Positions 1,808 to 60,086 of a stretch of 64,000 nt of DNA are shown here, piece after piece. The stretch comes from Candidatus Rariloculaceae bacterium. GTDB taxonomy: Bacteria; Pseudomonadota; Gammaproteobacteria; Steroidobacterales; Rariloculaceae. Every line of letters starts with the position of its first letter. Position 1 is the stretch's first letter. A model generated the notes under the pieces. That model ran no database searches, was not told where the DNA came from, and saw only the letters and a program-made list of their open reading frames with translations. A program made the position numbers and the translations under genes. The stretch lies in the NCBI GenBank assembly GCA_965204155.1, contig OZ241971.1, positions 57,593 through 121,592 of the forward strand, in the 5' to 3' direction.

Positions 1808-2938
1808 TCAGGGACCGGCTCGCTGAGCCTCGTATACCGCTGTTCCGGCTTCCTGCAGACACTCGATCGGGGGAGTGAGTTCCAGGTCCGGTTTGTGGAA
1901 GAAACTGGTCTCGATTTCGAACGGCGCGGTCATGTACTCGGGATCGAACATCGTCGTGTCGACATCGAGTGCCGTGCGGTCGTCGCGCCATCGGAATACG
2001 TGCGTGATCCGCTTCTGCGTACCCGATGGTAGCCCGCGCGCTATGCCCCAGGGATTGGGCTCGAAATTCCGGATGTCGACGCTCAATACGTCACCGTCCC
2101 ATTCGCCCGTGGCGTACCCCCACGTGTAGAGTTCGTCCGCCGGCGGATGCTCGCCGCCGATGTGGACGATCTGCTCCTCGCCTCCCCTGCGAAACACCAC
2201 CTGATCGGCGCGCCGCTCTATCTCCACGATATAGGCTTCAACGTGATGCGCGAACAGGTAGGGCTCCGGGGAGCACCAGGGGTTATCCGGCGCTGCGGTA
2301 TCGAACGCCCGAGCGATCTCCTTGCTTCTCTCATTCAATACGGGCACGAACCGGGTGGATTGCAAAGACATCGCAAATTCCGCGCGAATCTCCGGCGATA
2401 CCGGCTCATACATGTCCACGGGCCGCCCGCTGATTCCATGACGGGCAGCGACCTGCCAAATGCCATCGTAACCCTCCGCCGGTGTCGCGCCGATGGAGAT
2501 ATCCCTGGCAGACCCCCGGGCGGCCAGGGTCGAGGCCGCAACGATCCCGGGGCCGTGAGTCTGCGTCACGACCTCACCGCTCTCGAGCGTGAAAGACACG
2601 CTGTTGGCGACATTCCGTGAACCCGAGCGGAGCGGATTCCCAACCGCAACAACCCGATCGCCGACCTGCAACGAATCGTCCGACCATCCCCTGTCGATCT
2701 GCAGAATCGCCGACTGCATTTCGAAGCTCCACTCCTCGGTCGCGCCGCTGTCGGTAACCCCTTCCACGAAGACGTGCACATGCGGATTGACGAAATCGTA
2801 ACGCGTCACCGTGCCCGTCACCGACACTTCGCTGTTTCTGTCGTACACGGCGCCGCTGTGATGGCCCGAAGCGGCCGGCGGCAAAAGAAAAAACGCGCAG
2901 GCCAGCGCTGTGAGTCTGCGGAATTGGAGTCGTGTCAT
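1808..2938 (-). CDS. Secreted DUF6152-like domain fused to two-Cys partner domain
   Basis: Signal peptide then HHS..YD, NPHV, W.FE, L..GD.V...G.P. C-terminal WCSP..., GYATGEWDGDVL, DPEY, terminal Cys. Confidence 0.8.
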   Translation of the reverse strand: MTRLQFRRLTALACAFFLLPPAASGHHSGAVYDRNSEVSVTGTVTRYDFVNPHVHVFVEGVTDSGATEEWSFEMQSAILQIDRGWSDDSLQVGDRVVAVGNPLRSGSRNVANSVSFTLESGEVVTQTHGPGIVAASTLAARGSARDISIGATPAEGYDGIWQVAARHGISGRPVDMYEPVSPEIRAEFAMSLQSTRFVPVLNERSKEIARAFDTAAPDNPWCSPEPYLFAHHVEAYIVEIERRADQVVFRRGGEEQIVHIGGEHPPADELYTWGYATGEWDGDVLSVDIRNFEPNPWGIARGLPSGTQKRITHVFRWRDDRTALDVDTTMFDPEYMTAPFEIETSFFHKPDLELTPPIECLQEAGTAVYEAQRAGP

Positions 2939-3013
2939 CGGTCGTCCCCCCTGTTCACCAGTCTGAAGACAATCACTGATCGATTCATGGCAACCTCACC
3001 GCGTCGACGCGAC

Positions 3014-4642
3014 TCAGCGCCAGTGGGTCTCCCATTCCCGGACGAGTTCGGCCACCAGGTCGTGGTGCGCCGCCGCGATGTCGTGCCGTTCTCCGGGATC
3101 GGCGACGAGGTCGTAGAGTTGCCAGGAGATTGAACCCGTATCGTCGGGCGGTGCGGCGCCGACAATCTTGTAGTTTCCGCGAATCAACGCGCCGGTGCCG
3201 CCCCAGCCGACGCTATATGTTCCGGGATGTACCGCGTCAGCTTCGCCGGTCAGATAGGCCCAGGCCGAGCGGCCGGCGATGTCGTTGATCTCGCGTCCGT
3301 CTCTGTAGGGTCCGGCGCCCGGATGTTCCCTGCCCGCGATGTCCAGAAAAGTCGGCAGAAAGTCCATCACCGTCATGAAGGTGCTGCTGACGCCGTCGCC
3401 CTCGACGGCAGCCGGGTAATGCACGAACGCGGCCGCGCGAAGCCCGCCTTCGGTGACCGAGCCCTTCTGGCCCCTGAAGGGCGCCGACGCCGCCTCGCCA
3501 AACCCGAGGCCGTGGTCGATATACGAGTTGACCCGGCCGAAATTCTCGAAGCGGTTGTCGGCCACGACGGGGTCTCGGCCCCGGCGAGTGCTCGCCGTGC
3601 TATTCGTGCTGCCCGTGCCGAGGCCCTGCTCGCTGATAGAGGCGCCATGGTCAGCGGAAAACACGACCACCGTATTGTCGAGTTGCCCGCTTGCGTCCAG
3701 ATATTCGATAACCCGTCCAATACTCATGTCGAGGTATTCGATCACGCCGGCATAGATCTCCTGAGCGCGGGCGCGGCGTCGCTGCGCCTCGGCGCTAAGG
3801 TCCGCCCAGGGCTCGGCGCTTGGTTGAAAGCCTTCGAGGTCGGCGCCGGGCGGGATGACGCCGGCGTCCACGGCTCTGGCGAAGCGTTCTTCCCGCAGCG
3901 CGTCGTAACCCGCATCGTACCGGCCGGCATATCGATCCAGCCAGTCATCCGGAAGCTGCAACGGCAGGTGCGGTGCGTTGTAGGACATGAAGGCGAACCA
4001 GGGTCGGCCGGGCTCCGCGGAACTCAGATACTCGAGCATCTTGTCGGTAAATACCCGCGTGGAGTAGTAGTCCGCAGGGAGATCATCCCGCGTCAGGGGC
4101 TTTCCATCTTCCTCGAAGTCGTCCTGGAATTGGTCGGCGAAGTAGCCGCTTGAACTCGTCAGAAAGGAAAAGGATCGATCAAAACCACGGTCGGCGGGCG
4201 TGTAGCCCGAAACGTTTCCCAGATCCCACTTGCCCGTCATGTACGTCGAGTAGCCGGCGTCCTGCAACAACTCCGCGATGGTCGCGTAGTCGAGGCCGAG
4301 CACGCTCTCGCGAAAAGCCTCGGGGTGCGGCTGACTCGCGGCTTCGGCGCCGGCGCTTGCCATCAGCATCAGGCGCGTCGGTCTGCAGGCCCTTGCTGCA
4401 TGCAGATTGTTCAACCGCAGGCCCGCGTACGCCAGCCTGTCCAGATTCGGTGTCGCGATCTCGCTGCCAAACGAACCGATGTCGGTGAATCCCATGTCGT
4501 CCGCGAGGATGAAGAGGATGTTGGGACGGTCGTCTCCTCCCGCGGTCGACCCGACTGCCGGCTCAGATGCGGTTCCGTCTTGCGAGTGTCCCTGTACCGA
4601 TGCAACGAGCCACAGCGCCGTCAGGGCAAGAACTCTCTTCAT
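3014..4642 (-). CDS. Secreted arylsulfatase family protein
   Basis: RPNILFILADDMG, CRPTR, GKWDLG, APHLPLQ, YDLVADPGE. Signal peptide. Confidence 0.9.
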   Translation of the reverse strand: MKRVLALTALWLVASVQGHSQDGTASEPAVGSTAGGDDRPNILFILADDMGFTDIGSFGSEIATPNLDRLAYAGLRLNNLHAARACRPTRLMLMASAGAEAASQPHPEAFRESVLGLDYATIAELLQDAGYSTYMTGKWDLGNVSGYTPADRGFDRSFSFLTSSSGYFADQFQDDFEEDGKPLTRDDLPADYYSTRVFTDKMLEYLSSAEPGRPWFAFMSYNAPHLPLQLPDDWLDRYAGRYDAGYDALREERFARAVDAGVIPPGADLEGFQPSAEPWADLSAEAQRRRARAQEIYAGVIEYLDMSIGRVIEYLDASGQLDNTVVVFSADHGASISEQGLGTGSTNSTASTRRGRDPVVADNRFENFGRVNSYIDHGLGFGEAASAPFRGQKGSVTEGGLRAAAFVHYPAAVEGDGVSSTFMTVMDFLPTFLDIAGREHPGAGPYRDGREINDIAGRSAWAYLTGEADAVHPGTYSVGWGGTGALIRGNYKIVGAAPPDDTGSISWQLYDLVADPGERHDIAAAHHDLVAELVREWETHWR

Positions 4643-4729: not shown

Positions 4730-6163
4730 CTACGGGCGTACGGCGCTCCGCTCGACGTATTCGTCGAAGACTCCGCGGTCATACAGGTCGATGTAGAACG
4801 GATCCGGGTCGCAGGCGTCGACGTTGTACAGGGGGTTGTCGCCTCGGGATCGCCAGATCTCGTGCACGACCGGAAAATGATAGAACTCCGGGTCATGCAG
4901 TGTCAGGGTTTGCCGCAGCGTGTTGCCGTCGGCGCTGAGCCAGATCCGCTCCACGACCCTGGCGTTGCCGGAATAAGGGAAGTGCATCAGCCCGATGACA
5001 CCGGGCCGCAAGTGCGTGATGTCTATTCTCAGGTGGTCTTCCTCCCAGGTCATGACACCGAATCCGTTGGCCGACGGGACGATCTCGAGATCGTCCGGCA
5101 GGGTGTCCGCGAACCAGTCGCGCGCCATCCACTCGTCGCGCATCCGCAGTATGGATTCTTCGTCATGCACGAACTCGACCCGGTTGATGCCGAACATTCG
5201 GTCCCACATCGGCCCCCACGGCTGGCAGCGGGGTGTCGGTGCGTCCGTGGGATCGAACTGGGCGTAGACAGCGGCCCCTGCGTCGGTCAAGGCAAATGCG
5301 CGTTTGGTGAATGCTCCTCTGAAAGGTACAGGTGTACTGGCGCCTCCCCGGTTCGCACGGCCGCCGAACGCACCGTCGAGACGGAAAGGCGTCCGGGCCC
5401 ACTCCACGTCATTTTCGGGCCCCTCATCCGCAGGCACTGCGGTCCAGACAAGCTCGTTCTCGGAGTTGCTCGCACGGTAGACCCCGCTGAACGTACCGTC
5501 GCCGTTTAGCGTACCCGCCAGGCGGCCCTCGTACGGCACTCCGTTCCCCATGCGCAGCTTCAGGGTGAACTTGATGCCATCGCCGTCGACATGCAGGTCC
5601 TCGAGACCGCCGTGCGCCTGTACGACGTATTCGCCCTCGTATTCGATGATCGCGACATCGAACAGCAAAGGCGTTCGCGATTCAGGCTGAAAGACGAATC
5701 GCCACTCGCCCAGATAAGGCGCGACGTAGTCCGGATCCACGCTCCACGATGCAGGATCGTCGGACGAGAGGTCAGCGCCGCCACCAAGGGATACCCCGCT
5801 ACCCGTCTGATCGGTCGAGCCGTATTCGTCGCCGTCGCCGTCGATCATGTGTTGGACGAACACCCAGTTTCTTCCGTCCCTGCCCACTTCGCCGGTGACC
5901 ACGACCTCGTCACCGGGCGCGAAAGTGCCTTCCGCCAGTCCGCTTCTCGACGCGTTCGTGGCACTGGGCTGAACATGGAGCTGCCACCGCTCGCCGTCTT
6001 CGGAGACGGCTTCCCAGCGCACATGCGGGTTGCTCCAGTAGACGCGATCGATCGTGCCCCGAAACTCCATGTTGGTATTGGGCAGAAAATCGACATAGTG
6101 CGAATGGTGGGCCTGGGCAGCCGAAGCGAGCACCAGGCTCAGGAAAATGACATATCGATTCAT
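4730..6163 (-). CDS. Secreted DUF6152-like + extra beta-rich domain + partner domain
   Basis: Start MNRYVIF at 6163 (GAGG RBS). AQA-HHSH, WSNPHV, middle YLGEW...GTFSG domain, C-terminal PRCQPWGP...DACDPDPF. Confidence 0.78.
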   Translation of the reverse strand: MNRYVIFLSLVLASAAQAHHSHYVDFLPNTNMEFRGTIDRVYWSNPHVRWEAVSEDGERWQLHVQPSATNASRSGLAEGTFAPGDEVVVTGEVGRDGRNWVFVQHMIDGDGDEYGSTDQTGSGVSLGGGADLSSDDPASWSVDPDYVAPYLGEWRFVFQPESRTPLLFDVAIIEYEGEYVVQAHGGLEDLHVDGDGIKFTLKLRMGNGVPYEGRLAGTLNGDGTFSGVYRASNSENELVWTAVPADEGPENDVEWARTPFRLDGAFGGRANRGGASTPVPFRGAFTKRAFALTDAGAAVYAQFDPTDAPTPRCQPWGPMWDRMFGINRVEFVHDEESILRMRDEWMARDWFADTLPDDLEIVPSANGFGVMTWEEDHLRIDITHLRPGVIGLMHFPYSGNARVVERIWLSADGNTLRQTLTLHDPEFYHFPVVHEIWRSRGDNPLYNVDACDPDPFYIDLYDRGVFDEYVERSAVRP

Positions 6164-6205: not shown

Positions 6206-8611
6206 CTAGTTGCCGCCGAAATCCTTGCTGAGCACGAGCGAGAGCATGCGCGGCGGCGCACGGTCGGCATAGTTGATCAGGTTCGGAGAACGTCCACGGG
6301 CCGGCCAGGGACCGTGGAAGATGCCTCCGAACAGGACGGCGCTGCGTTCATACGTCTTGTCGGCCAGGTTGGTACCTTCGAGCGACAGGGACAGCGCCTG
6401 TTCAGGCCAGGTCATCGTGATGCGGCCGTTCAGCAGGGCATAATCGGGCAAAACGGTGAATTCGTCCCTGTTGACGTTGCCGAAACTGACCATGTCGTCC
6501 TGCCAGGTGTAGTTCAGGCTGGTCCTGAGTTCCCCGCCCCAAACGTCCGCCGTGTAATTCAGTGCCGCGGCGTAAGAGTACTTGGGCGTATTGGTAATCT
6601 GGTCCCTTTCACCGAAAGGACCCGAGAGTACGGCATCGGTCTCGACTGCATCCACATGACCTACGGACAAATTGACGATCAGATCGTCGGTGAAGGCGAA
6701 GTCCATATCCGTTTCCCAACCGTCGCTCACGACGTCGCCGAAGCTTCTGAGGACCAGAATCACCGAACCGGTGGAAAAGTCGAGATCAAATCCCTGCCGG
6801 TTTTGCTGATCCATGTCGAACAGCGTGAAATTCCATCGCAATCGGCCGTCCATCCAGGTCGAACGCAGGCCGATCTCGCTGCTGATCACCTTCTCGGGCG
6901 GCAGCGGCGCCAGCTCGTAATCGTCCGGGTGGAACTGGGCCGGGTCACTCGCCCCCCTGCCGGCCGGATGCGAGTAGACACCCGCGCGGTAGGCTTTCGC
7001 ATGCGCCGCATAGATCATGAGGTCGTCGTTGATCCGATGATCGAGCGCCACCCGGTAGTCGGTCTCCGTCCAGTTCTCGGAGTCGGTGTCGACCCAGGTG
7101 CAGTTGGGATCCCGGACCAGGACATCAGCGGACGTGGCAGACGATGTTGTGCAGTTGTTCCATCCCCTGATATTGAAGTCGCCACTCTCCCATTCCTGGA
7201 ACCGCGCGGCGTTGTCTTCATCCGTGTACCGCAGGCCGAGCGTCAGACTCGTCGCGTCATTGGCGAAGTGATAGGTTCCCTGGGCAAACACGCCCAATGC
7301 CTCGTACTGCCACGTGTCGAACCAGATGTCCCGAAAGTCCGCGTCATTGTCCGGATTGTGGTTGCGGACGACGTAGCGATCCTCGGTCTCCTCGGCGTCG
7401 AAGTAGTTGATGCCCGAGACCAGATCGATCCGGCCGTCGGCCAGCGCCGAATTGAGCACGACCTCGACCGTCGTGGCCTCGGTCTGATAAGTCTCGTGGC
7501 GTATCTCCGCGCCGTAGCCGAGCCAGTCCACCGCCCGGGAGTTCCAGATGTCGTGCTGTCCCGCCGAGACCTTCAGGCTGTGGTCTTCGTTGAGGGCCCA
7601 GTTCACGCTCGCGCTGATCTGGCTGTTGTCGGCGCGCGACCAGGTGTCGCAGCCCGGGTCCCAGCTCGGCTCCATGTCGTAAAGGAAGCAGAAACCCGAC
7701 TGCGAGTAGTCGTCGAGAATCAGCCGTTGATCGCCTGATGTGAGTGCCGGCAGCCCGTTCATTACCAGCGATCTGTTGAGCTGTCCAAGGTGGTTGGACA
7801 GTGGATTGATCAGTTCGACCGAGGTGATCGTCCGGGTTGACGGATCGCCCATGGCCTCTTCCGTGCGGTACTTGAAATCGACCGTCACGTCGTCGTTCGG
7901 CACCCATCGAAAGGCCAGGCTGCCGAGCGTATCGTCGATGTCGCCCGTATCGCCCGAGTCGCCGGAAACGCCCACTCTCGTGAAGTAACCGTCGCGATTC
8001 AGGCTCGCGACATTGGCTTTCATGAAGAATGTGTCGCTGAGCGGGACGTTGACATCGAACTCCACGTCGGCGCGCCCGAAGTTGCCCGCCCGCAATTCCG
8101 CGTTGGCGTAGAACTCTTCGCTGGGCTTGCGCGTAATGACGCGGATTGCGCCGGCGGTCGAGTTTCGTCCGAACAGCGTGCCTTGCGGCCCGCGTAGCAC
8201 CTCGATCGACTCGACGTCGACGGCCCTCAGGGCATTCCGGTTGGGGCTCGGGAAGTAGACGTCGTCGATGTAGAACGCCACGGCGGACTGCGTGCCCTGG
8301 CCGGTAATGCCGCGAATGTTGAAATTCGGGTTCGTCGCGCCCTGGGTCCTCGACGGCCTGATATTGAGGTTCGGCGTGGCGGACTGGATATCGAACATGT
8401 CGACGATCACCCGCTCCTCGAGCACCTGGGTCGAAAAGGCCGCCACCGAGAGAGGCGTGTCCTGAAGCGACGCCTCGCGGCGTTCCGCCGTGACGACGAC
8501 CTCCTCGAGCGTCTGCGCAAAAGGCGCCGCAGGCGCGAGCATGGCCACGATTGCTCCGATCACCGGAATCGATCGACAAACTTCTCTGTGGACGACAGTG
8601 CTGAATCTCAT
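6206..8611 (-). CDS. TonB-dependent receptor
   Basis: TonB box-like TLEEVVVTA, plug motifs VYFP..N and VEVLRGPQGTLFGRNSTAGAI, beta-barrel pattern. Start MRFSTVV with GGGAG RBS. Confidence 0.95.
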   Translation of the reverse strand: MRFSTVVHREVCRSIPVIGAIVAMLAPAAPFAQTLEEVVVTAERREASLQDTPLSVAAFSTQVLEERVIVDMFDIQSATPNLNIRPSRTQGATNPNFNIRGITGQGTQSAVAFYIDDVYFPSPNRNALRAVDVESIEVLRGPQGTLFGRNSTAGAIRVITRKPSEEFYANAELRAGNFGRADVEFDVNVPLSDTFFMKANVASLNRDGYFTRVGVSGDSGDTGDIDDTLGSLAFRWVPNDDVTVDFKYRTEEAMGDPSTRTITSVELINPLSNHLGQLNRSLVMNGLPALTSGDQRLILDDYSQSGFCFLYDMEPSWDPGCDTWSRADNSQISASVNWALNEDHSLKVSAGQHDIWNSRAVDWLGYGAEIRHETYQTEATTVEVVLNSALADGRIDLVSGINYFDAEETEDRYVVRNHNPDNDADFRDIWFDTWQYEALGVFAQGTYHFANDATSLTLGLRYTDEDNAARFQEWESGDFNIRGWNNCTTSSATSADVLVRDPNCTWVDTDSENWTETDYRVALDHRINDDLMIYAAHAKAYRAGVYSHPAGRGASDPAQFHPDDYELAPLPPEKVISSEIGLRSTWMDGRLRWNFTLFDMDQQNRQGFDLDFSTGSVILVLRSFGDVVSDGWETDMDFAFTDDLIVNLSVGHVDAVETDAVLSGPFGERDQITNTPKYSYAAALNYTADVWGGELRTSLNYTWQDDMVSFGNVNRDEFTVLPDYALLNGRITMTWPEQALSLSLEGTNLADKTYERSAVLFGGIFHGPWPARGRSPNLINYADRAPPRMLSLVLSKDFGGN

Positions 8612-8856
8612 GTGAATACTCCCTTGCGCATTGTTTTGTTTTTCAATCGCCACCCATCCTGACGATGGCGACACAGGTGACTCCTTGGCACTTTATCTTA
8701 TCAATCTCACTAAGCGCCGATCCTCTGAAAGGAGCGGCAAATGGCTGAGTTTTTTGTAAAACTCCATGAATTTTGCGGTCGGGAAACGGCAGCGCCAGCG
8801 CGCCATAGGGCATAATCCTGACCTAAAAATCTGAAGGGCTCTTGAGGGATTCGATA

Positions 8857-10353
8857 ATGAAGCAACAACTTTTTTGGGGACCTCTTGTAGTGACGCTCCT
8901 TGCGGCGAACGCGGGTATCGCCCAAGAGCGGCCCAATATCGCCCTGATTCTGTCGGACGATCAGGGATGGTACGGGCTCTCCGTGCAGATGCACCCGGAC
9001 CTGCCCAACTCGAAAAGCGACTTCTTTCACACGCCCCGGCTGGAGGAGCTGGCCAGTCAGGGCATGCGCTTCTCCGACGCCTACTCGCCATCGCCGGCCT
9101 GCTCGCCGACCCGGCTGAGCATTCAGAATGGCATGAACCCGGCCACGAATCGCATGACCAAGGCCGAGCCCATCGCCACGGCGTTTAACAATTTTCCGTT
9201 GCTTCCGCCGAACCATCCGTATCCGATCGCGATCGACAGGGAATACACCACCGTCGGCGAGGTCCTGCAGGCGGCCGGTTACCGCACCGCGCACTACGGC
9301 AAGTGGCACCTCGGCGGTAACGAACCGCCCGAAGCCCACGGCTACGACGAGTCCGACGGGCCGGCCGGCAACGAGCTTGCCTGGGAGTGGGATGACCCGG
9401 ACAACCCGCTGGACATCATCGGCATGCCCGGGAAGGCGCTCGACTTCATACGGCGGGCCAACGAGGCCGGCCAGCCGGCGTTCGTGCAGCTTTCCGCTCT
9501 CGGGCTGCACGGTGCGGAGCACGCGTCAGCAGAAGCCGTCGCCCGGGCCCAGGCGCGCCCCAGGGGCGAAATGCACGGTAGTGTTCGCAGTGCAGCGGTC
9601 ACTGAAGATCTCGACACCAGTGTCGGCATCTTCATGGACGGCCTCGACGAACTCGGCCTGAGCGACAACACCTACGTCATCTACATGGGCGACAACGGGC
9701 ACGTGCGCCAGCAAAACGCCATGCCCAGCAACCACCCGGACAGCCCCGCTCCGCTGATGGGCGACAAGGGCAACCTCTCCGAAGGCGGCATTCGCGTGCC
9801 CTTCATCATCCGCGGGCCGGGCATCGAGGCCAACGCCTGGTCGAGCGTGCCGATCGTCGGCTTCGACCTCTTCCCGACCTTCGCGGAGTGGGCCGAGGTC
9901 GACCCGGCCGAACTGCCTGCCGGCCTCGAAGGCGGCAGCTTCGCTGCGGTGCTTGAGAATGGCGGAGTGGGTGAGGTTCAGCGCCCACGCGAGGGGCTGG
10001 TATTTCATTTCCCCCATTACCAGTCGGGAACGCCCCAGTCGGCCATTCGTGTCGGCGATTACAAGCTGATCAAGTATTATGAAGGCAACTGGACGGTGCT
10101 GTTCGACCTCGCCAACGATATCGGTGAGCGCAACAACCTGGCGATGCAGATGCCGGAGAAGGCGGCGGAGTTGGAAGCCACGCTGGACGAGTACCTGGCA
10201 TCGGTGAATGCGGACCTTCCGGCCATCAACCAGGACTACGATCCGACCCAGCCGACAGGCTTCCCCGGCCGCCGGAGAAGGGGGGCGGACCCGAATGTCA
10301 TCGTTCCCTACGACACCACCCATGACCCGGAGAGTTTTTACTTTGGGGAGTGA
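8857..10353 (+). CDS. Secreted sulfatase family protein
   Basis: RPNIALILSDDQG, CSPTR, GKWHLG, GDNG, KGNLSEGGIRVP, LFDLANDIGE. Confidence 0.92.
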   Translation: MKQQLFWGPLVVTLLAANAGIAQERPNIALILSDDQGWYGLSVQMHPDLPNSKSDFFHTPRLEELASQGMRFSDAYSPSPACSPTRLSIQNGMNPATNRMTKAEPIATAFNNFPLLPPNHPYPIAIDREYTTVGEVLQAAGYRTAHYGKWHLGGNEPPEAHGYDESDGPAGNELAWEWDDPDNPLDIIGMPGKALDFIRRANEAGQPAFVQLSALGLHGAEHASAEAVARAQARPRGEMHGSVRSAAVTEDLDTSVGIFMDGLDELGLSDNTYVIYMGDNGHVRQQNAMPSNHPDSPAPLMGDKGNLSEGGIRVPFIIRGPGIEANAWSSVPIVGFDLFPTFAEWAEVDPAELPAGLEGGSFAAVLENGGVGEVQRPREGLVFHFPHYQSGTPQSAIRVGDYKLIKYYEGNWTVLFDLANDIGERNNLAMQMPEKAAELEATLDEYLASVNADLPAINQDYDPTQPTGFPGRRRRGADPNVIVPYDTTHDPESFYFGE

Positions 10354-51175: not shown

Positions 51176-51236
51176 GCAGCGCCACCTGGTGATTGCAGGT
51201 GTCGCAAGGATACAGCCAACGGCAATGGATGACTGG

Positions 51237-51479: not shown

Positions 51480-51500
51480 GACTTCAGATAGGCCAGGTGA

Positions 51501-51947: not shown

Positions 51948-52221
51948 TATGCACTCACGGAGACAAAAAATAGAAAATGCGATGAATGGAAGGTCAGTCG
52001 AGAGGGGAACGCTTTCGGCGCTGCCTTTTAGCAAAAATACATGAACATGTCAAGAGTATTTCCGCACAACTAGGATATTACTGAAGCGATATACGAAAGT
52101 ACAATACTTTGATGGGATATATGCACAAAAATTCCAGAAATGGCAGAGAGTTCGCCATGAGCAATTAGCCAATTCGTGGGGGAATCGGTCCGGAAGAAAG
52201 TGGGGTTGTGTCTAACCCGCA

Positions 52222-52650
52222 TCAGGCCGTCTTCAGGCCGGACGCCAGTATGCCCCTGACCCCAGCTTCCTCGTCCTTGATGGACACGTCACCCGTGACG
52301 CCGACCGCCCCGATGCATACGCCATGATCGTCGAAAATCTTGACGCCGCCGGCGTCGGCGAGAAACTTCCGGTTCGAATTCTCGTTGAGGTAGTCGTTGA
52401 ATAGCGGCCGGGACTCCAGAAAGCCCTGCAGGCCGGATGTCGTCGGGAAACCCAGCCCGGCGGCCGCACAGGCCTTGCCGAAAGCCAGTTCATACCGGAA
52501 GAAGCTCGCCCCGTCGGCCCGCTGGAAGGCGACGACGTGACCGCCGTCGTCCACTACGGCCGCGGCCAGGGGCTTCAGCCCCATGTCCTTGCCCGCTGCC
52601 AGGGTCCGTGCGCAGATTTCGTTGGCTGCCGCCAGGGGAATCGATGCCAT
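52222..52650 (-). CDS. GlcG/HbpS family heme-binding protein
   Basis: AVVDDGGHVVAFQRADGA, A.GKA, GGV.I....IGAVGVTGD...DE. Confidence 0.9.
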   Translation of the reverse strand: MASIPLAAANEICARTLAAGKDMGLKPLAAAVVDDGGHVVAFQRADGASFFRYELAFGKACAAAGLGFPTTSGLQGFLESRPLFNDYLNENSNRKFLADAGGVKIFDDHGVCIGAVGVTGDVSIKDEEAGVRGILASGLKTA

Positions 52651-52778
52651 GAGTGGTTCTCCTCGAAGTCAGATGTGTCTGCAAGCCGTTTCAATCATAT
52701 GATAGAGTAACCGGCATTCTATCGTGCAGTGAATGGAAAACGATGAACATTACGTTTCGGAAGACGGAGTCCTGACCG

Positions 52779-53687
52779 GTGGATGCCAGACCCTGTCCCG
52801 GGCCCGGACAACCGGGCGCTCCGGCTTATCGCCTGCCCCGCAACACTTGCGATACGCATGTTCACGTTGTGGGTCCGTTCGATCGCTATCCGTTGGTGGA
52901 GAAGCGAGTGTATACCCCGCCCGAGGCGACGGCCCGGGATCTTGAGAATTACCTGCGGATCTCCGGAATCGACCGTGTCATCGTCGTTCACGTCACAGTC
53001 GCCGGAACGACGCCGGACATTACTCTGGATGCCATGGCGCAACTGGGCAAATCCGCCCGCGGGGCGGTTCTGCCCGACGAAACGGTGTCGGACGAACAGA
53101 TTGCCGCCTGGCACCGGGCAGGGATCCGCGCCGCGCGAATAACCGGTTTCGGCGGCGAGCCGCTGACCGAAGCGAAGATTCGCACCATCGCCGACAAGGT
53201 GGCGCCGTACGGGTGGCACCTGCTCTACATGAGTCTGGGCGCCGAGGAATGGGAAAGACTGCTTCCCGTGTTGCTGGATCTGCCCGTTGAGGTCTGTGTC
53301 GACCACATGGGCGGACGGCTCTACGACTTCGATGCGGGAACCGACCAGCCCGCATTTCAGTCCCTTCTCAGGACGGTAGGCGAAGGCTCGATATGGACCA
53401 AGATTTCCGGCTACTACCGCTACTCGAGCGACCAGTCGTATCCCTGGCCGCGTTCGCTGCCGTTTGCCCAGGCGCTCGTCGACGCGAATCCCGAACGCCT
53501 GATATGGGGCTCCGACTGGCCCTACCCGGCCCTGTTCCACAAACCGATGCACAAGACGGTGGGTCCCATCGACTGGCTCGCCCAACTCGACGTCCCGGCC
53601 CGGGACCTGGAGCGAATCCTGGTGCACAACGCCGCGAAGCTCTACGACTTCCCATCCGATTCGACAGAGGCACAAGCCGACGGCTGA
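52779..53687 (+). CDS. Amidohydrolase family protein, LigI (2-pyrone-4,6-dicarboxylate lactonase)-like
   Basis: TCDTHVHVVGP..RYP, VDHMG, WTKISG.YR, RLIWGSDWP. Confidence 0.75.
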   Translation: MDARPCPGPGQPGAPAYRLPRNTCDTHVHVVGPFDRYPLVEKRVYTPPEATARDLENYLRISGIDRVIVVHVTVAGTTPDITLDAMAQLGKSARGAVLPDETVSDEQIAAWHRAGIRAARITGFGGEPLTEAKIRTIADKVAPYGWHLLYMSLGAEEWERLLPVLLDLPVEVCVDHMGGRLYDFDAGTDQPAFQSLLRTVGEGSIWTKISGYYRYSSDQSYPWPRSLPFAQALVDANPERLIWGSDWPYPALFHKPMHKTVGPIDWLAQLDVPARDLERILVHNAAKLYDFPSDSTEAQADG

Positions 53688-53695
53688 TCGGCCTA

Positions 53696-54580
53696 TCAGC
53701 CAATTGGCTCGTATTCGGCTGAATTGGCGACCCATCCTTTCTCGACAAAGTCGTCGCGTACGGGCGAAAAGACATCGATCAGGAGGTTCCTGACCGAACC
53801 GGGGCTGCCGGTTACCGTGTGAATGAGACCGACCGGAAAGACGCCAATGCACGGTGCGTCGATGCGTTCATGCCGGTCGGCCCGCCAGGCCGTGGAATCC
53901 GGCATCCATGGCACGCGCAGGTGATAAACGAAGGAGCCCCTTAGCCCCAGGGATGCCTGCTCGAACGCCGAATGATTGTGTGGGCTGAGCCGGGTCGGGT
54001 CCCGTGCTCCCTTGTACTCGACCCAGTTGATGCTAATGGCGTCCGACTGGATCATGCGGGTCCGGTCGGCATGGGGTAACGTCGCAAGCTCGGCGATCTC
54101 GTAGCGGTTGATTCGGCCTGGATTGGAGGTGCGCCGAAAGTTCCTTCGCGGCGGAACGATCCTTTCGTCGGCCCTCGTGTAATGAGCCAAGTTGATCGCG
54201 CGCCGCCGAAGTGCCTCCGGTGGTTTCGAGTGGGCTATCGCGACCTGCGCCGATTCGCCGACGACAACCTGGAATCTGCCCGCAGGTACGATCGCGACGG
54301 AGCCCGCACCGAGTTCAACGGTATTGTCGACGTTCCCGTTGGCACCGTCGACACTCCCGGCGGCATCGTCAACACGCTCGATCCGCGCGTTGCCCGCGGA
54401 TAGCATCACAATGGATTCGAACTCTCCCGCGCGCTCCAGCCGGGCGGCACTCGATGGCTGCCAGAGCTCAACAGCGAAGTTCTGCGCCGTCACAACCTGG
54501 GACTCCGCATCTCCTGCTGCATCGGACAGTCGCAACAGCGTCTCCTCACGAACCGGATAGATGTCCAATGCCCTATCCAA
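53696..54580 (-). CDS. Hypothetical protein with probable cupin double-stranded beta-helix domain(s)
   Basis: PHNHSAFEQ...H...P..IHT and LIDVFSP.R.DF cupin-like motifs. Confidence 0.6.
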   Translation of the reverse strand: MDRALDIYPVREETLLRLSDAAGDAESQVVTAQNFAVELWQPSSAARLERAGEFESIVMLSAGNARIERVDDAAGSVDGANGNVDNTVELGAGSVAIVPAGRFQVVVGESAQVAIAHSKPPEALRRRAINLAHYTRADERIVPPRRNFRRTSNPGRINRYEIAELATLPHADRTRMIQSDAISINWVEYKGARDPTRLSPHNHSAFEQASLGLRGSFVYHLRVPWMPDSTAWRADRHERIDAPCIGVFPVGLIHTVTGSPGSVRNLLIDVFSPVRDDFVEKGWVANSAEYEPIG

Positions 54581-54625
54581 CTGATATTTCCGTACCGGTG
54601 GCCGCAGGCCCGCTCTTGGCGACGC

Positions 54626-55498
54626 TCATGCAGAAACGTTCTTGAGAAGAAACTCGAGGTGTCGCGCGTTGAATCGCTCGCTGTCTTCGAAGTACGGAGC
54701 GTGGATGCAACCCTCGAAGAACTCCAGTTCCGAGTTCGGAATCAGTTCGCCGAGCTTTCTCGGCAGCGCCGTACTCGTCAGAGCGTCCTTGACGCCCTTT
54801 GCGATCAGGGTCGGCGCCCGGATCGACCGATACTCGTCTTCGGAACAGAAGCTCAGGTGCGCAGTCTCTTCCAGGTGATGCACGGCGAAGTGCTTGTAAC
54901 GCTCGCGGATGAGCGGTTGCCTGAAGACATTGCGACGGGCCGCGATGATGTCGTCGAAAATCTCGTCCTCGCGAATGATCGCCCTGATCCCCTTTTCCGC
55001 GCCTTCCCACGTCGATTCGTCGGCTTCGGTGATGTGCGTTCGAAGAATGCGTTCCGCCCGCTCCTTCTCGAAGTACAGCCCGGCGGGGGACACGAGCGTC
55101 AACGTGCTGGTCCGGTCGGGATAGTCCACGGCAAAGCGGGCGACGACGCGCGAACCCATGCTGGTTCCGACCACCGACGCCTTGTCCAACCCGACAGCGT
55201 CCATGAAGTCGATCATGTGCCTTGCCAGCACCGGCGCGTGATAGTCCATCGCCGGCTTGTCGGAGAAACCGGTGCCCATGAGATCGATGGCATACGTGTT
55301 GAAGTGCTCGCCATGTGCCGCGAGGTTCTTGATCCACACATCGCAGTGGCTCCCGAACCCGTGAATCAGCAACAACCCCGGCAGCTCATCCGAACCGCTG
55401 CGCAGGTAACGCGTGCGCACATCGCCCGCCATGGCGTAGCCCTGCTCGAAGGCGACGCCCTGCAGCCAGGTCCAGATGCTGCGGTAGCTGGTGGTCAT
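54626..55498 (-). CDS. Alpha/beta hydrolase, meta-cleavage-product hydrolase-like
   Basis: LIHGFG, DLMGTGFSDKP, GTSMG nucleophile elbow, G.KD, C.HAPYFE. Confidence 0.85.
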   Translation of the reverse strand: MTTSYRSIWTWLQGVAFEQGYAMAGDVRTRYLRSGSDELPGLLLIHGFGSHCDVWIKNLAAHGEHFNTYAIDLMGTGFSDKPAMDYHAPVLARHMIDFMDAVGLDKASVVGTSMGSRVVARFAVDYPDRTSTLTLVSPAGLYFEKERAERILRTHITEADESTWEGAEKGIRAIIREDEIFDDIIAARRNVFRQPLIRERYKHFAVHHLEETAHLSFCSEDEYRSIRAPTLIAKGVKDALTSTALPRKLGELIPNSELEFFEGCIHAPYFEDSERFNARHLEFLLKNVSA

Positions 55499-55588
55499 GG
55501 ACCAGATTCTATCGAATGACTTAACGATGCGATAGACAGCCTGACCGGGCAAGACCTGTTGCAGGAGCGACAGAACGGCCTCAATGCA

Positions 55589-58500
55589 TCAGCGACCCCC
55601 GACGCCGCCCCTCACTCCTGGCGTGTAGGCGAATTGCAGCAGGTATGTGCGGTCGCCGGCGCCGACCAGCGGGGCGCCGGAACGCTCGCGCTCGGAGCTG
55701 TTGAGGTTGCGCACCGTCAACGACAGCGAATACGCGTCGCTGAAGGCGAATTGATGGCGCAAGTCCACAGTAACCACGCCACCGCTCGTGACCGTCTCGA
55801 TACCGTCGGCCAGATCGACGGCGTTCAGGATGTCCGTATCGGCCCGCAACGTGAGTCGAGTCGTTTGGCCGCGAAGGAACGTATTGTCCCGCCAGTTCAA
55901 GTTGAAGCGCACGTTCCCGGTCCACTCCCTGATGTTGGCTATATTCGCAGCCCCGCCGATACCGTTCGTGCCGACGACTTCCGACACTGGCTCCGCTACC
56001 GTGTCCTGAAAGAGGAAACTCAGCGTTCGGGTGGCATTGACCCTTACGGCCAACGCCGCGAACGGCGTGTCCCAGTTGGAGCTGACCGCGAGATTGATGC
56101 CCTCCATCCTGGTCGTGGCCAGGTTGGTGTAGAGACGGTAGTCGGCGCTCAGTTCCTCGCGAGTGGCAATGATGCCATCGCCATCGGGATCGCTTCCGTC
56201 CCAGCAAAGCTGGCCGTCCGGGTCCGGAACGCCATCCAGGTCCACATCTTCGGTAAGGTAGAATCCGCCCCACGCGGCCATGCCATTGGCGTTCATTGTG
56301 GAAAATGCGCACGGACTCAGGCCCGGGCTGCCTCCCCAGCTCCGGTTGATCGCCGACGACACGTCGATCCGGTCCTCAAAGTCGATGTTCACGTAAGAAG
56401 CTGACCAATTCAGGCTGTTGAGCGACCCAACGTCCCGGAATAGCGTCGCGTCCAGTCCAACGCTGAGATGCGCCGCCTGTTGCGGACCGAGCTCCGAATC
56501 GGCGCGGAAGACGGACGTCACGCCATGCCCGCCCCTGCGGCCCCCACCGGGGATCTCCGGCACGGAACTGCGACCCTGGGTCGGGGTGGTTTGCGCAAGG
56601 GTCGGTGCGCGGAAGGACGTTCCATACGAGGTTCGCAAGGCCACGCGGTCCGAAACATTCCAGGTCAGTCCCACCTTCGGATTGAAGGTTCCCCCCACCG
56701 TGCTGTAATCATCGTAGCGTCCGGCCAACTGCATGGAGAGATTTTCGTGGACCGGCACCGCCGCTTCCATCAGCACCGCAGCGATGGTCTGGTCTCCCGA
56801 GTAGGGCACCTGCGGTGAGGAAGTGGCCGTAAAGGTGATGTTGCGGTCGGCCGACTTGGTAAATTCGTTGTAGTCCACCGCCGAGGACTCCTGACGGTAC
56901 TCCGCGCCGACCACCGCCAGGACTTCACCACCGGGCAATTCCCAACCCGTATCGATGGAGAGCAGCGCGTTGACACCCAGCAAATCGGTTTCGAACATAC
57001 GTTGCACACCGTCACCCGGATACATGTAGTCGATGAGTTCCGGGGAATTGGCCAGTGAACCGCCTTCGAAAATCGTATCCGCGTTGGGCAGCAATGCGCT
57101 GAGGAACGGATTGAAAAACATGCATGAGCCTTCGCCCGGCATTCCTGTGGCCGGATCGCAGCCCGGACCGCCCAGGCCCGCCAGCGCGTTCTCGAAACGA
57201 TCAATCACGAGATCGTAACGATTCTGCGTCACCGCACTGCGACCGTAGGTCGTGCCAAGCTGGAGGCCGAAGGTCTCGTTCAGATCGATGTCGAGAGAGC
57301 CATGCAGGTTGTATGTGTCCGACTCCTGGAGCTGCTGGTCCTTGAACCCGATACCGGGACCGATGGCCACGTTGAGGGGAGGAGGCGGCGTTCTGACAGT
57401 CATTCCCCTCGACATGCCGACGGTCGGCTGCCCGATCCGATGCCAGTCGTCGTCGAGTGTCATGTAGTACTGCCAGGCGGGGTGGTCGGCGGTGATGGTT
57501 TCGTCCACGTAGTTCGGTATTGCGGCCGAACTCAAATTCTGTCCACGTCCTGTATCGAAGCTGGTTTGCTGGTTGTCCCAATTCTCGCGATGGCTGTAGC
57601 CGAAGTCGAGGGAACCCGAAACGCGGCTTGAAAAATCCCAGCGAACCGCAGCGAACAGCGAAGAACGGTTCGTATCTCTGCCGGTGGTGTGCGGAAAGTC
57701 ATAGCCGTGACAAGTTCCCGCCGTCCCGGGGACGGACGAGTCGTCTTCGGGAACGAGAAAGCCCTCATAGTTATAGTCCAAGCCCTCAATATCCACACCG
57801 CAGAGCGGATCGACCAATGTCTCGCCAGGGATGGTATTCCTACCCATGCCGATCGAGGGGGTCATGGATTCATACGCCGCGCCGTCGTTGGCGTTGCCGG
57901 TCATGTCCTGATAATCCATCAAGAGCATGCTGCCGTCCCACTCCGGGAAGGAATCGGCGTTGCTCCTGCCCACAGCCAACGCATCGATTTCCCGCGTGAT
58001 GCGGTGATCGAACGCCGCGATGAAACTGCCCATGCCATTTCCGAGCCCGGTGCCCCAGATCCCTTCGATCGCATTGGATCCGGTGTCGCTCAGGCTGTCC
58101 GGGTAAAGGTCCGTCTGCATGCGAAACTCGATGCCCTCGAAGCCATACCTCGGCACCAGGTTGATTACGCCGGCCACGGCGTCGGTTCCGTAGATGGCGC
58201 CACCGCCGTCGAGCAGCACATCGGCCCTGGCCATGGTAATGGCCGGCAGCACCGAATTGATATCCGAGGTGTACCAGCCGCCGCTGTTCGGCGCGGCGTA
58301 GTGGATCACTCGCGAGCCGTTGAGCAGCGTGAGCGTGTTTTCCTCTCCCAAGCTCCACAGGCTCACCCCGGCGGCGCGGTTGCCGGTGCCCGCCTGACCG
58401 CTGGTATTGCCTTCATCGACTCCCAGCGAAACCACGTTATTGGACGTGATATTGTCAGCGAAAAATTCGGAAATGGTCACCGAGGGATTGTCGAAGAAAT

Positions 58501-58702
58501 CCTCGTTGGTGACCTGCACCAGCGGCGAAGCGGTTTGCCCCTGGCCGAAGATACGGGAACCGGTGACGACGACCTCTTCCAGCGTCGACTCTTCGGACGC
58601 GCCGTCCCCCTCTGCCTGCCCGTCTTCCGCTTCCTGCGCGAACGCAACGCCAAACGCGAGCGCGGCGCCCGCCACGATAAGTCCTGCATGAATCATCTTC
58701 AC
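55589..58702 (-). CDS. TonB-dependent receptor (large, Cys-containing loops)
   Basis: TLEEVVVTGSRI, TLTLLNGSR, DGGGAIYGTDAVAGVIN, RYDDYSTVGGTFNPK, GTSFRAP. Confidence 0.95.
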   Translation of the reverse strand: MKMIHAGLIVAGAALAFGVAFAQEAEDGQAEGDGASEESTLEEVVVTGSRIFGQGQTASPLVQVTNEDFFDNPSVTISEFFADNITSNNVVSLGVDEGNTSGQAGTGNRAAGVSLWSLGEENTLTLLNGSRVIHYAAPNSGGWYTSDINSVLPAITMARADVLLDGGGAIYGTDAVAGVINLVPRYGFEGIEFRMQTDLYPDSLSDTGSNAIEGIWGTGLGNGMGSFIAAFDHRITREIDALAVGRSNADSFPEWDGSMLLMDYQDMTGNANDGAAYESMTPSIGMGRNTIPGETLVDPLCGVDIEGLDYNYEGFLVPEDDSSVPGTAGTCHGYDFPHTTGRDTNRSSLFAAVRWDFSSRVSGSLDFGYSHRENWDNQQTSFDTGRGQNLSSAAIPNYVDETITADHPAWQYYMTLDDDWHRIGQPTVGMSRGMTVRTPPPPLNVAIGPGIGFKDQQLQESDTYNLHGSLDIDLNETFGLQLGTTYGRSAVTQNRYDLVIDRFENALAGLGGPGCDPATGMPGEGSCMFFNPFLSALLPNADTIFEGGSLANSPELIDYMYPGDGVQRMFETDLLGVNALLSIDTGWELPGGEVLAVVGAEYRQESSAVDYNEFTKSADRNITFTATSSPQVPYSGDQTIAAVLMEAAVPVHENLSMQLAGRYDDYSTVGGTFNPKVGLTWNVSDRVALRTSYGTSFRAPTLAQTTPTQGRSSVPEIPGGGRRGGHGVTSVFRADSELGPQQAAHLSVGLDATLFRDVGSLNSLNWSASYVNIDFEDRIDVSSAINRSWGGSPGLSPCAFSTMNANGMAAWGGFYLTEDVDLDGVPDPDGQLCWDGSDPDGDGIIATREELSADYRLYTNLATTRMEGINLAVSSNWDTPFAALAVRVNATRTLSFLFQDTVAEPVSEVVGTNGIGGAANIANIREWTGNVRFNLNWRDNTFLRGQTTRLTLRADTDILNAVDLADGIETVTSGGVVTVDLRHQFAFSDAYSLSLTVRNLNSSERERSGAPLVGAGDRTYLLQFAYTPGVRGGVGGR

Positions 58703-58841
58703 TGAATTTCTCCTCTCGCAATTCGGTATCGGTCCAGTAACGGCCGATTGGCCATTCTTGAAAGTCCCTGCCTGTGGTTCATTTGAGCCGGCTACACTCG
58801 CCTTTCGTTCGTTTCAATCGGATACGGACCTGCAGCGGCGG

Positions 58842-60086
58842 CTACTGGAATTTCAGAAAGGCAGCGCTGGACTCGGGATCGCAGACCGCCGCAACGAATT
58901 CGCGGTCCGGCTGTTTCGTCAACCTGGCGGAACCGCCGAATGGCTCGGCCAGGTAAACGGGATCGGTCGTCGTCCAGGATATGTCGATGACCTTGCCGTC
59001 CCCGGCCAGTTCCATGCGGCCATGAATTTCCTTTTCGGCGCTGGAATCGATACCCCGTACAAGCCCCCAGATGGCGGGCGCAAAATTCGTGATGCTGAAC
59101 AGCAACGTAGCCTCGTCTTCGAATCGGCCCACCGCAAGCCCGTCCCGCCCGGGCACGTAATCGGCGGGGACCGCGGACTCGTCCAGCCAGATGGTATTGA
59201 CCACGCTGGTGGATTCCTTCTGAACGACGAGACGGTCCTCGTAGCGGTCAATGCGGACACCGGTCGGGGTCGTCACGAAGTTCGGGAAAATGCTCTCGAT
59301 GCAATGGTAGGTGGGGTCATTCAGATCGCGGACCCTTTCACGCTGCGCCTGACCGACTTCGGTCAGGACCATGCCGTTGCCCTGCCCGCCGGCGGGCGGC
59401 GCGGCGCCCCCAGCGGCCCCATCGGGCGGCGCGGTCCCCATACCCGCGCCACCGGGGGGCGCAGCCCCCATACCGGCGCCACCGGGAGGCGCGGCGCCCA
59501 TACCCATTCCGCGTCCGGCCGCGGCGCGGCCGCCGGAATCGCTATCGGCGCCTCCCAGCGGTTGCCCTCCGAAACTGGCATTCAGGGCCAGCCAGTTACC
59601 GCTGAAATCCGTGGAAGGTGGCGTAAGGTGGGACAGGTCCTGGCGGCCCCCGCGACCGCCACCCGCCGGTTGCGGTGTCTCCCCGGCGGCATACTCCTGT
59701 GGAATCACGCTGCCGGGCATGCCGTTCAGCGCAACGCCGTCCGCCGTCAGAACCCATAGCAACAGGGCGTACCGGTTGTCCGGGTTCCTGTCGGGGTTGG
59801 CGCCAACGGAAATTACATCGCCTGGCTGAAACGTGTCGGGTTGCCAGCCATAGCTGGCAACGCCCTGGACCGAGTGCGCTTCGAGAAGCCAGTCTTCGCC
59901 GCTGTCGAGCTCGATTCGAAGGAGTACGTGCGGGTTGGCCCAGCGAAACTCGGTCACCGTGCCGGTGAGCCGAATCGGGTTGGCCGCATCGAATCCGGTG
60001 CGCGAATGGTGCGCTGGCGCCGATAGGGCAAACAGCGTCAGCAATACAAGAAAAACGCCGTGTATCGACGAATTCCGAGCGGGCAT
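58842..60086 (-). CDS. Secreted DUF6152-like + partner domain with Gly/Met/Pro repeat insert
   Basis: APA-HHSRTGFD, WANPHV, WLLE; NDPTYHC, GLAVGRFEDE, DPVYL, VCDP. Confidence 0.82.
   Translation of the reverse strand: MPARNSSIHGVFLVLLTLFALSAPAHHSRTGFDAANPIRLTGTVTEFRWANPHVLLRIELDSGEDWLLEAHSVQGVASYGWQPDTFQPGDVISVGANPDRNPDNRYALLLWVLTADGVALNGMPGSVIPQEYAAGETPQPAGGGRGGRQDLSHLTPPSTDFSGNWLALNASFGGQPLGGADSDSGGRAAAGRGMGMGAAPPGGAGMGAAPPGGAGMGTAPPDGAAGGAAPPAGGQGNGMVLTEVGQAQRERVRDLNDPTYHCIESIFPNFVTTPTGVRIDRYEDRLVVQKESTSVVNTIWLDESAVPADYVPGRDGLAVGRFEDEATLLFSITNFAPAIWGLVRGIDSSAEKEIHGRMELAGDGKVIDISWTTTDPVYLAEPFGGSARLTKQPDREFVAAVCDPESSAAFLKFQ
59389..59508 (-). repeat. 30-bp coding tandem repeat x4 (GAGMGAAPPG)
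   Basis: Four degenerate 30-bp units encoding (G/A)(G/A)MG(A/T)APP(G/D/A). Confidence 0.8.

Follow-up and report, generated by a model that had tools for sequence, protein, structure and literature searches.

The window analysed here, a 64 kb stretch at positions 57,593-121,592 of the single 5.03 Mb contig of a Candidatus Rariloculaceae genome, holds 22 genes for exported proteins assembled from two parts, the domain DUF6152 (PF19649) and a partner domain of ~190 residues. Pfam lists DUF6152 as a family of unknown function and its model covers only the 98-residue OB-fold half of the protein; the partner half is without a Pfam or NCBIfam model. Public homologues bear no annotation beyond 'DUF6152 family protein' or 'hypothetical', and the literature library searched held no paper on DUF6152, PF19649 or Rariloculus. 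An earlier, sequence-only reading of the window had counted 19 DUF6152-like genes and three genes with the partner domain alone, and took them, together with eight sulfatases, two TonB-dependent receptors (TBDRs) and aromatic-type catabolic genes, for a system resembling a polysaccharide utilization locus (PUL). The observation is confirmed and the interpretation is partly supported. Judged from sequence, the window is where a Sec-exported periplasmic module of two parts, previously undescribed and expanded throughout the lineage, is most concentrated in the genome; the module is probably metal-dependent and small-molecule-binding, and it is not a PUL.

The gene count holds in full. Pfam hmmscan, with a gathering score of 27 bits, finds PF19649 in all 19 open reading frames (ORFs; 27.5-88.5 bits), only 43831-44250 being borderline (27.5 bits), and the translations place the proposed starts at the Met preceding each signal peptide; signal peptides are present on the family genes, as had been claimed. 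The three partner-only genes, starting at 14371, 35734 and 37006, lack DUF6152 and align to the C-terminal halves of the fused genes, with no match to any Pfam family at cut-off or to any NCBIfam family; a hidden Markov model (HMM) for the partner domain was built from the window's own sequences. The 22 genes comprise ten fusions in which DUF6152 precedes the partner, six tandem double-DUF6152 genes, three DUF6152-only genes and the three partner-only genes. All six double-DUF6152 genes of the genome sit in the window, and its 19 DUF6152 genes compare with 2.7 expected per 64 kb at the genome-wide density (Poisson 1e-10), the region being the genome maximum for family density.

Five of the fused genes lie on the forward strand (+): 29113-30093 (79.2 bits to PF19649), 30112-31134 (74.4 bits), 31971-33068 (68.2 bits), 38759-39865 (65.1 bits), whose product was modelled, and 39923-41068 (83.9 bits). 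The other five lie on the reverse strand (-). The first of these, 1808-2938 (80.1 bits), has a C-terminal half that aligns to the partner domain and is 57-60% identical to 39923-41068; 4730-6163 (44.2 bits) carries a small beta-domain inserted between its two parts and lies 12 bp downstream of a TBDR; 17069-18097 (59.7 bits) and 19099-20148 (53.7 bits) are simple fusions; and in 58842-60086 (63.1 bits) the parts are joined by a Gly/Met/Pro-rich linker. The double-DUF6152 genes are all on the forward strand. In 10458-11273, PF19649 matches in two stretches (88.5 bits), an HMM made from window sequences scores the two repeats at 83 and 41 bits, and repeat 2 lacks the His-His pair described below; 31131-31958 (72.5 bits) also contains two domains. 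Pfam and the same HMM together identify 41099-41920, which has a Gly/Met/Arg-rich tail, 41917-42768, 42782-43612 and 44491-45414. The ATGA overlaps reported earlier are real, at 31131 and 41917, each onto the preceding gene.

The remaining members show the module taken apart. DUF6152-only gene 35219-35602 (+; 33.7 bits) and partner-only gene 35734-36579 (+; no Pfam or NCBIfam match) are the first and second halves of a split pair. On the reverse strand, 36629-37006 (69.3 bits), again DUF6152 only, has a 1-nt overlap at 37006 with the partner gene upstream of it, 37006-38055 (-), which encodes a small beta-domain followed by a partner domain that aligns to the partner halves, is without DUF6152 and has no Pfam match. 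The short DUF6152-only gene 43831-44250 (+) is the weakest member, with AHHG at the His-His position and a His instead of the Asn-Pro-His usual further on. The third partner-only gene, 14371-15291 (-), aligns to the partner halves, has a sub-threshold Prim-Pol hit as its sole Pfam match, and shares 66% identity with a paralogue located at 4.82 Mb. One member is easily missed: an 824-aa ORF, 33290-35764, over-extends an exported sulfatase by ~250 codons across the divergent gene 35219-35602, so that a longest-ORF annotation would hide the latter. PF00884 falls on residues 299-714 of this ORF, and the sulfatase (33290-35026, -) likely starts at ATG 35026 or 34996.

The small beta-domain of ~100 aa thus recurs as the N-terminal extension of 37006-38055 (-) and as the insert of 4730-6163 (-), the two being 27.6% identical over 105 aa (E 2e-4). 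With an iterated HMM it is detected in five ORFs of the genome, four of them also containing the partner domain; a stand-alone secreted protein of 154 aa, 38088-38552 (-), resembles it weakly.

For the fused protein 38759-39865, an AlphaFold2 (AF2) model was built from an alignment of 55 homologues and paralogues (predicted local distance difference test score, pLDDT, 82; predicted TM-score, pTM, 0.71). Its N-terminal domain is an OB-fold, matched by Foldseek at probability 1.0 to SSB, PriB and the LysRS anticodon-binding domain. Sub-threshold Pfam matches were to DUF4131, tRNA_anti-codon and DUF5818, and a search of PDB sequences with the whole protein returned only a non-significant phage OB-fold SSB (E 0.38). 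Across the same 55 sequences the DUF6152 residues H22, H23, G39, P49, H50 and G90 are invariant. In the genome, His-His stands directly after a site obeying the -3/-1 signal-peptidase rule in 210 of 212 copies, all 19 window genes included, with A (167), G (28), S (11) or T (4) at position -1; the two exceptions lack the N-terminal region in the ORF calls, one of them being a 91-aa fragment. A Pro-His, usually as Asn-Pro-His, follows 26-31 residues later in 209 of the 210 copies, and a W/Y-x-x-E/D motif on the next strand is common in the window alignment. This His-His...Pro-His signature is held constant although the median identity of a copy to its best paralogue in the genome is only 46%, and the alignments show it to be under strong purifying selection. 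After cleavage of the signal peptide, the mature chain is predicted to begin at His-His.

The partner half was modelled from 35734-36579, in which a 202-aa region folds into an eight-stranded beta domain after short helices (pLDDT 83). Its invariant residues, numbered as in the fused protein, are C212, G264, P328 and C347 among the 55 homologues and paralogues, so that it has one invariant Cys pair, to which a few invariant polar residues (Arg, Asp) are added. The partner domain has no match in Pfam at E 1 or in NCBIfam at E 0.1, and its profile finds no relative among PDB sequences even at E 10. The eight strands of the model recall the up-and-down beta domain of the calycins (avidin, the fatty acid-binding protein (FABP)-like SAHS proteins, lipocalins), to which its best, non-significant matches belong; SAHS is hit with a Foldseek probability of 0.89 and TM-scores are 0.25-0.44. 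Calycins have neither the helical segment at the N-terminus nor the invariant pair of Cys.

The module is far more abundant than the window alone would suggest. Genome-wide counts rest on a crude codon-usage gene caller (3,848 genes), which makes counts per gene position approximate, and the census was made with HMMs built from the window's own sequences. DUF6152 was found in 212 ORFs and the partner domain in 195, which corresponds to a family of about 287 genes (120 fused, 92 DUF6152-only and 75 partner-only), or ~7% of the gene calls; Pfam's own model places at least 150 ORFs over its cut-off among 226 candidates. Of the partner-only genes, 55 of 75 adjoin a DUF6152-only gene on the same strand, in both orders, with gaps of -483 to +129 nt that are mostly small. 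The 120 fusions and 55 adjacent split pairs therefore mark the two parts as obligate partners, fused or split.

DUF6152 is present in each of the 24 further genomes of the taxonomic family that were searched, from six matches in one genome of 1.2 Mb to at least 91, with up to 255 first-look candidates, and matches run to tens or hundreds in every genome of this taxonomic family but the one small one. The expansion characterises the taxonomic family as a whole; in 16 genomes from the order's other families there are 0-1 matches, and in 14 control genomes none. The fused form itself is widespread in uncultured Gammaproteobacteria and other groups. The protein 38759-39865 has 706 homologues, most of them full-length, and out of 1.84 billion the partner-domain profile retrieves at least 20,626 cluster representatives with E <= 1e-3, of which 12,933 reach E <= 1e-10; each representative stands for a 50%-identity cluster of public sequences.

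Mis-assembly of repeated paralogues was ruled out as the source of this density, since the genome is a single contig, the window paralogues are mutually only 20-60% identical, and an array, 38088-47833, recurs at ~94% nucleotide identity in two other metagenome-assembled genomes (MAGs). The same array is found at 83-90% nucleotide identity in MAG isolate SB0676_bin_28, which may be sponge-derived, judging by the isolate name. Recent tandem duplication was likewise mostly rejected as the origin of the arrays, for the nearest paralogue of 14 of the 22 window genes lies in another part of the genome; mutual closest relatives within the window are confined to the double-DUF6152 genes and the pair 1808/39923. 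Eight family genes have paralogues that are >90% identical elsewhere in the genome, and two DUF6152 matches ~19 kb apart have identical scores (C1:3965468-3965740 and C1:3984756-3985028), as if a segment near 3.96-3.99 Mb had been duplicated recently. Array content varies between close relatives, as 44491-45414 (within window 44292-45520) has no counterpart in related genome L001 (OZ242031.1) and is present in L002. These two related MAGs also contain a 3.4-5.1 kb insert between window positions 38068 and 38088 (L002:3928-7330; L001:2222-7329). In both, it encodes a 1000-aa TBDR directly upstream of the orthologue of 37006-38055. The present genome lacks the insert, which therefore represents an insertion or deletion of a TBDR beside the split module pair.

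Within the window, family genes are interleaved with enzymes and receptors. Plug and TonB_dep_Rec_b-barrel domains identify exactly two TBDRs, and PF00884 identifies eight sulfatases (E 1e-39 to 1e-57, 134-194 bits), so that both counts made earlier stand. The sulfatases number 8 against 0.86 expected (4e-6), a density at which the region ties for the genome maximum. TBDR 6206-8674 (-) heads an operon-like string that continues with the fused gene 4730-6163, exported sulfatase 3014-4642 (-; E 3.6e-57), the fused gene 1808-2938 and, as the last gene of this TBDR operon, exported sulfatase 339-1751 (-; E 1.4e-42), an S1, formylglycine-type enzyme with a signal peptide and a Cys-x-x-x-Arg motif. 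In a second string, 58842-60086 is followed after 139 bp by TBDR 55589-58702 (-; 1037 aa). Partner-only gene 14371-15291 heads a third, with exported sulfatases 12953-14350 (-; E 6.6e-53), 20 bp downstream, and 11362-12885 (-; E 1.9e-53). Apart from 33290-35026, the remaining exported sulfatases are 8842-10353 (+; E 1.5e-40, with SGSH_C), 24077-25603 (-; E 6.3e-40) and 27498-28955 (+; E 7.4e-39), the last heading the 29113-33068 array. The S1 motif C-[RSTF]-[PT]-[ST]-R is visible in the six sulfatase translations inspected, which leave aside 27498-28955 and 33290-35026.

TBDRs, exported sulfatases and exported accessory proteins in co-directional strings are also features of the PULs of Bacteroidota (SusC/SusD with carbohydrate-active enzymes (CAZymes) and sulfatases). 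In contrast to a PUL, the genes beside both window TBDRs are DUF6152 fusions, with no SusD family match in the scanned ORFs; the enzymes are sulfatases and aromatic-type catabolic enzymes, Pfam scans of ~50 window ORFs having turned up no SusD-like genes, glycoside hydrolases or lyases; and the module mostly lies away from TBDRs. What stands of the PUL-like proposal is the set of real, exported, diversified two-domain paralogues with two TBDR strings and sulfatase neighbours; its TBDR linkage is marginal.

Neighbour enrichment was assessed in this one genome from clustered gene calls, by looking for families over-represented within three genes of a family member. Sulfatases directly adjoin a family gene in 22 of 64 cases against 5.7 expected (permutation maximum 14 in 2000), and in 19 of 56 against 8.6 once the window is removed. 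The sulfatase link is thus real in the present genome, where sulfatases are the commonest operon-like neighbour of the family. For TBDRs, the other association expected from the sequence-only reading, adjacency is marginal (13 of 89 against 8.0, p about 0.05), and a distance test at 5 kb shows no excess, with 17% compared with 16.5% when positions are random. The main sulfatase cluster has 29 of 63 members near a family gene (13.7 expected, p 1e-5). Similar figures were obtained for exported metallo-beta-lactamase (MBL)-fold proteins (12/16 against 3.5, p 8e-6), pyrroloquinoline quinone (PQQ) dehydrogenases (11/15 against 3.3, p 3e-5), SnoaL_4 proteins (5/5 against 1.1, p 5e-4), di-haem cytochromes c (5/6 against 1.3, p 2e-3) and amidohydrolases (7/11 against 2.4, p 3e-3). 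The sulfatases, MBL-fold proteins, PQQ dehydrogenases, amidohydrolases and cytochromes c are all exported and of kinds that typically depend on a metal or cofactor. Still, a sulfatase lies within three genes of only ~14% of family genes, 207 of 287 (72%) have neither a TBDR nor a sulfatase at that distance, and 31% of gene sides face another family gene. A sulfatase-specific subfamily was rejected, as the tree scatters sulfatase-adjacent modules (23 changes for 23 tips), and so was duplication of sulfatase and module as a unit, since the members of 17 sulfatase/module pairs did not diverge in step (Mantel r = -0.08, p = 0.86). At three loci in other lineages the neighbours are variable (AP_endonuc_2, MBL, flavin monooxygenase, cytochrome b, TBDR, M49 peptidase) and no sulfatase stands beside the module. 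The module tends to lie near exported hydrolases, most of all near sulfatases, but it is neither part of a fixed TBDR-centred locus nor dedicated to sulfatases.

These statistics bear on the proposal that the module is a PUL-like, non-catalytic periplasmic shuttle, which would pass substrates entering through TBDRs to sulfatases or to inner-membrane MFS transporters, the paralogues covering a heterogeneous pool, with aryl sulfates and lignin-like aromatics as proposed substrates. The two TBDR-linked strings of the window, the third TBDR that relatives carry directly upstream of the 37006 orthologue, the two window MFS transporters that lack binding proteins and the enrichment of sulfatases all fit such a role. 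So does the number of paralogues, because the Bug (TctC) proteins of Bordetella and Cupriavidus form families of tens to hundreds of diverged periplasmic paralogues per genome, mostly not beside a transporter. Yet the TBDR association is as weak as described, most copies have neither receptor nor sulfatase nearby, the window ORFs scanned include no SusD or CAZyme, and a pure carrier would not need an invariant His-His/His triad, kept in almost every copy. Structurally, too, the module differs from known carriers: Bug is an alpha/beta Venus-flytrap, whereas the module is an all-beta OB-fold plus barrel whose invariant His triad suggests a metal site, and the two alpha/beta lobes of periplasmic solute-binding proteins in general (ABC, TRAP, TTT/Bug) are absent from the almost all-beta models, which have no Pfam match to such proteins. 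We regard a simple shuttle as rather unlikely.

The same neighbours could be read as clients. In this explanation, the DUF6152 histidines would scavenge metal and load Sec-exported metalloenzymes or feed a membrane importer, in the manner of CopC/CopD or 'anglerases'. The enriched neighbours (sulfatases, MBL-fold proteins, amidohydrolases, PQQ dehydrogenases) are of families that as a rule depend on a metal or cofactor taken up in the periplasm, published families with an N-terminal His bind or sequester metal (PMC12537917), and Gly/Met-rich stretches, which include tails, are mildly enriched in the family (11/287 against 29/3561 other genes). However, ~290 diverged paralogues with a variable 190-residue barrel far exceed known metallochaperone needs, module and adjacent enzyme have not diverged together, and many copies lie in arrays with no enzyme alongside, so that metal delivery seems to us an improbable principal function. 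As to the Gly/Met/Pro-rich stretches themselves (GGMG and GAGMG repeats), they occur in the linker of 58842-60086, in tails within 41099-45414 and inside sulfatase 339-1751; Met-rich stretches recall Cu(I)-binding motifs and may have that role, or may be simple linkers.

Neighbouring enzymes could also be targets of inhibition. The N-domains of tissue inhibitors of metalloproteinases (TIMPs) are OB-folds in which the first residue chelates the zinc of the protease, and the N-terminal residue of APRin acts likewise. By analogy with this precedent, the free N-terminus of the DUF6152 OB-fold would enter the active site of an exported hydrolase, engage the metal there and hold the enzyme inactive until it is needed. 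An NTR/C345C domain does appear among the Foldseek matches, at rank 47, and the module adjoins exported, typically metal-dependent enzymes. Against this, there is again no co-divergence with those enzymes, most copies have no enzyme neighbour, the obligate barrel partner would be left unexplained, and the TIMP hallmarks (Cys1 and disulfides) are absent: the OB-fold is shared with TIMP/NTR inhibitors, whereas the module starts with His-His and its DUF6152 half has no conserved Cys. We consider an inhibitory role very improbable.

The reading that we prefer, with a probability of about 0.4, is that constant metal chemistry is combined with a variable pocket in a substrate-diversified binding or catalytic family. 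The two parts act as a 1:1 unit, fused or encoded by adjacent, often translationally coupled genes, and since DUF6152 comes first in the fusions its His-His end stays free. The His-His/His cluster would hold a transition-metal ion, perhaps with the strand-3 Glu/Asp; we infer this from the published principle that His at the N-terminus chelates metal by nature, on any fold (PMC12537917). The fast-diverging barrel, with its invariant Arg and Asp, would hold a small, probably anionic organic molecule, and each paralogue may bind or transform one class of periplasmic compounds, probably anionic (sulfated, carboxylated or aromatic). The module would operate alongside exported hydrolases, for example the Cys-type sulfatases, its link with TBDRs being loose.

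Precedent for the metal site comes from secreted proteins that have His as first residue, which are metal binders regardless of fold (PMC12537917). Known N-terminal-His metalloproteins (lytic polysaccharide monooxygenases (LPMOs), CopC, YcnI, DUF4198, DUF6702, Ang-1 and Ang-2) share with the module a signal peptide followed by His, a further conserved His downstream and a periplasmic or secreted location, and some have TonB-receptor neighbours (PMC12537917). The module differs from them in its OB-fold, which replaces the beta-sandwich or cupredoxin-like fold, in its two consecutive N-terminal His, in the obligate second barrel and in the hundreds of paralogues per genome. Among them, the histidine-brace copper proteins (LPMO, CopC, YcnI) have His as mature residue 1, which is predicted from sequence for the module as well, on an immunoglobulin-like or cupredoxin-like beta-sandwich scaffold that the module does not share. 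Their T-shaped three-nitrogen Cu site is formed by the N-terminal amine, the His1 imidazole and a second His; in the module a site of this kind would involve the tip that is modelled with pLDDT <50. None of the signal-strapping families DUF4198, DUF6702, Ang-1 and Ang-2 is among the Pfam matches of the window family ORFs, and the study of N-terminal-His proteins mentions neither DUF6152 nor an OB-fold (PMC12537917).

A bolder version of this preferred reading makes DUF6152 and its barrel a hitherto unrecognised, very large class of periplasmic metalloenzymes that would oxidise, or transform in some other way, the small organic molecules held in the barrel. A mononuclear metal centre, either a histidine-brace-like Cu site or a 3-His/carboxylate site, would sit on the free N-terminus of the OB-fold; the ~290 paralogues would be catalysts diversified by substrate that attack recalcitrant organic matter, whether sulfated, carboxylated or aromatic, and periplasmic PQQ dehydrogenases and c-type cytochromes could be the electron donors. 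We hold this version to be doubtful.

Several points weigh against a metal site paired with a ligand pocket. The model is uncertain precisely at the N-terminal tip, with pLDDT <50 for residues 18-24. The notion of a ligand-holding barrel derives from a weak avidin/FABP-like likeness, because no structural match to the partner model was significant (best Foldseek hit streptavidin, E 0.056), and the partner half has no conserved His, Met or Cys metal ligand. Six window genes carry a second OB repeat instead of the barrel, and the concentration of this double-OB subfamily in the window is explained by none of the models. Genomic context is of little help, because ~40% of gene sides have no operon-like neighbour, and the literature yielded no biochemical datum on any member.

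This is a large family without a studied member, of which one half has no family name and no solved structural relative. Should the module bind metal, an OB-fold that opens with His-His would join the known scaffolds of N-terminal-histidine metal sites as a new one; should it bind or transform small organic molecules, it would be a major unseen part of organic-matter processing, including that of organosulfates, in these marine Gammaproteobacteria, which are probably sponge- or sediment-associated. New here are the genome-wide census, the phyletic pattern at the level of the taxonomic family, the neighbour statistics for sulfatases, MBL-fold proteins, PQQ dehydrogenases and TBDRs, the lack of co-divergence between module and sulfatase, and the restriction of the double-OB form to the window within this genome.

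The rest of the window is fairly described as containing aromatic-type catabolic genes, as had been stated, since MFS transporters, a FAD aromatic-ring hydroxylase, two Amidohydro_2 enzymes, a FAA hydrolase, SnoaL_4 and an alpha/beta hydrolase are present, together with an exported VOC-fold protein and GntR and TetR regulators. Pfam assigns 20455-23922 (+) to an MFS transporter, an Amidohydro_2 enzyme and a GntR/FCD regulator, and 45561-55552 holds the aromatic-type set proper (MFS, the hydroxylase, TetR, FAA hydrolase, SnoaL_4, an HbpS-like protein, Amidohydro_2 and the alpha/beta hydrolase). The exported VOC/glyoxalase-fold protein, 18594-19106 (-; Glyoxalase_4 and Glyoxalase, with a signal-peptide-like N-terminus), has an 8-nt overlap with the end of the fused gene 19099-20148. 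Between a partner-only and a fused gene lies 15574-17049 (+), an exported PGA_cap (CapA-like) protein with what we take to be a metallophosphatase-like fold, which adds one more exported enzyme to the island.

Elsewhere, in the metagenomic lineages L005 and L007, orthologues of 38759-39865 lie in a conserved neighbourhood in which PSD/PSCyt proteins, ankyrin repeats and an FMN dehydrogenase are followed by AP_endonuc_2 (a xylose-isomerase-like TIM barrel) directly upstream; one of the two also has an MBL-fold gene downstream of the module. In the present genome, the strongest neighbour signal belongs to an unnamed exported family of 272-293 aa with 14-15 copies and no Pfam match (e.g. C1:3980398-3981216 (-) and C1:1660673-1661554 (-)). 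All 14 members counted are within three genes of a family gene (3.0 expected, p 5e-10), and 14 copies stand directly beside a DUF6152 or partner gene in operon-like arrangement, so this family may be a third component of the module.

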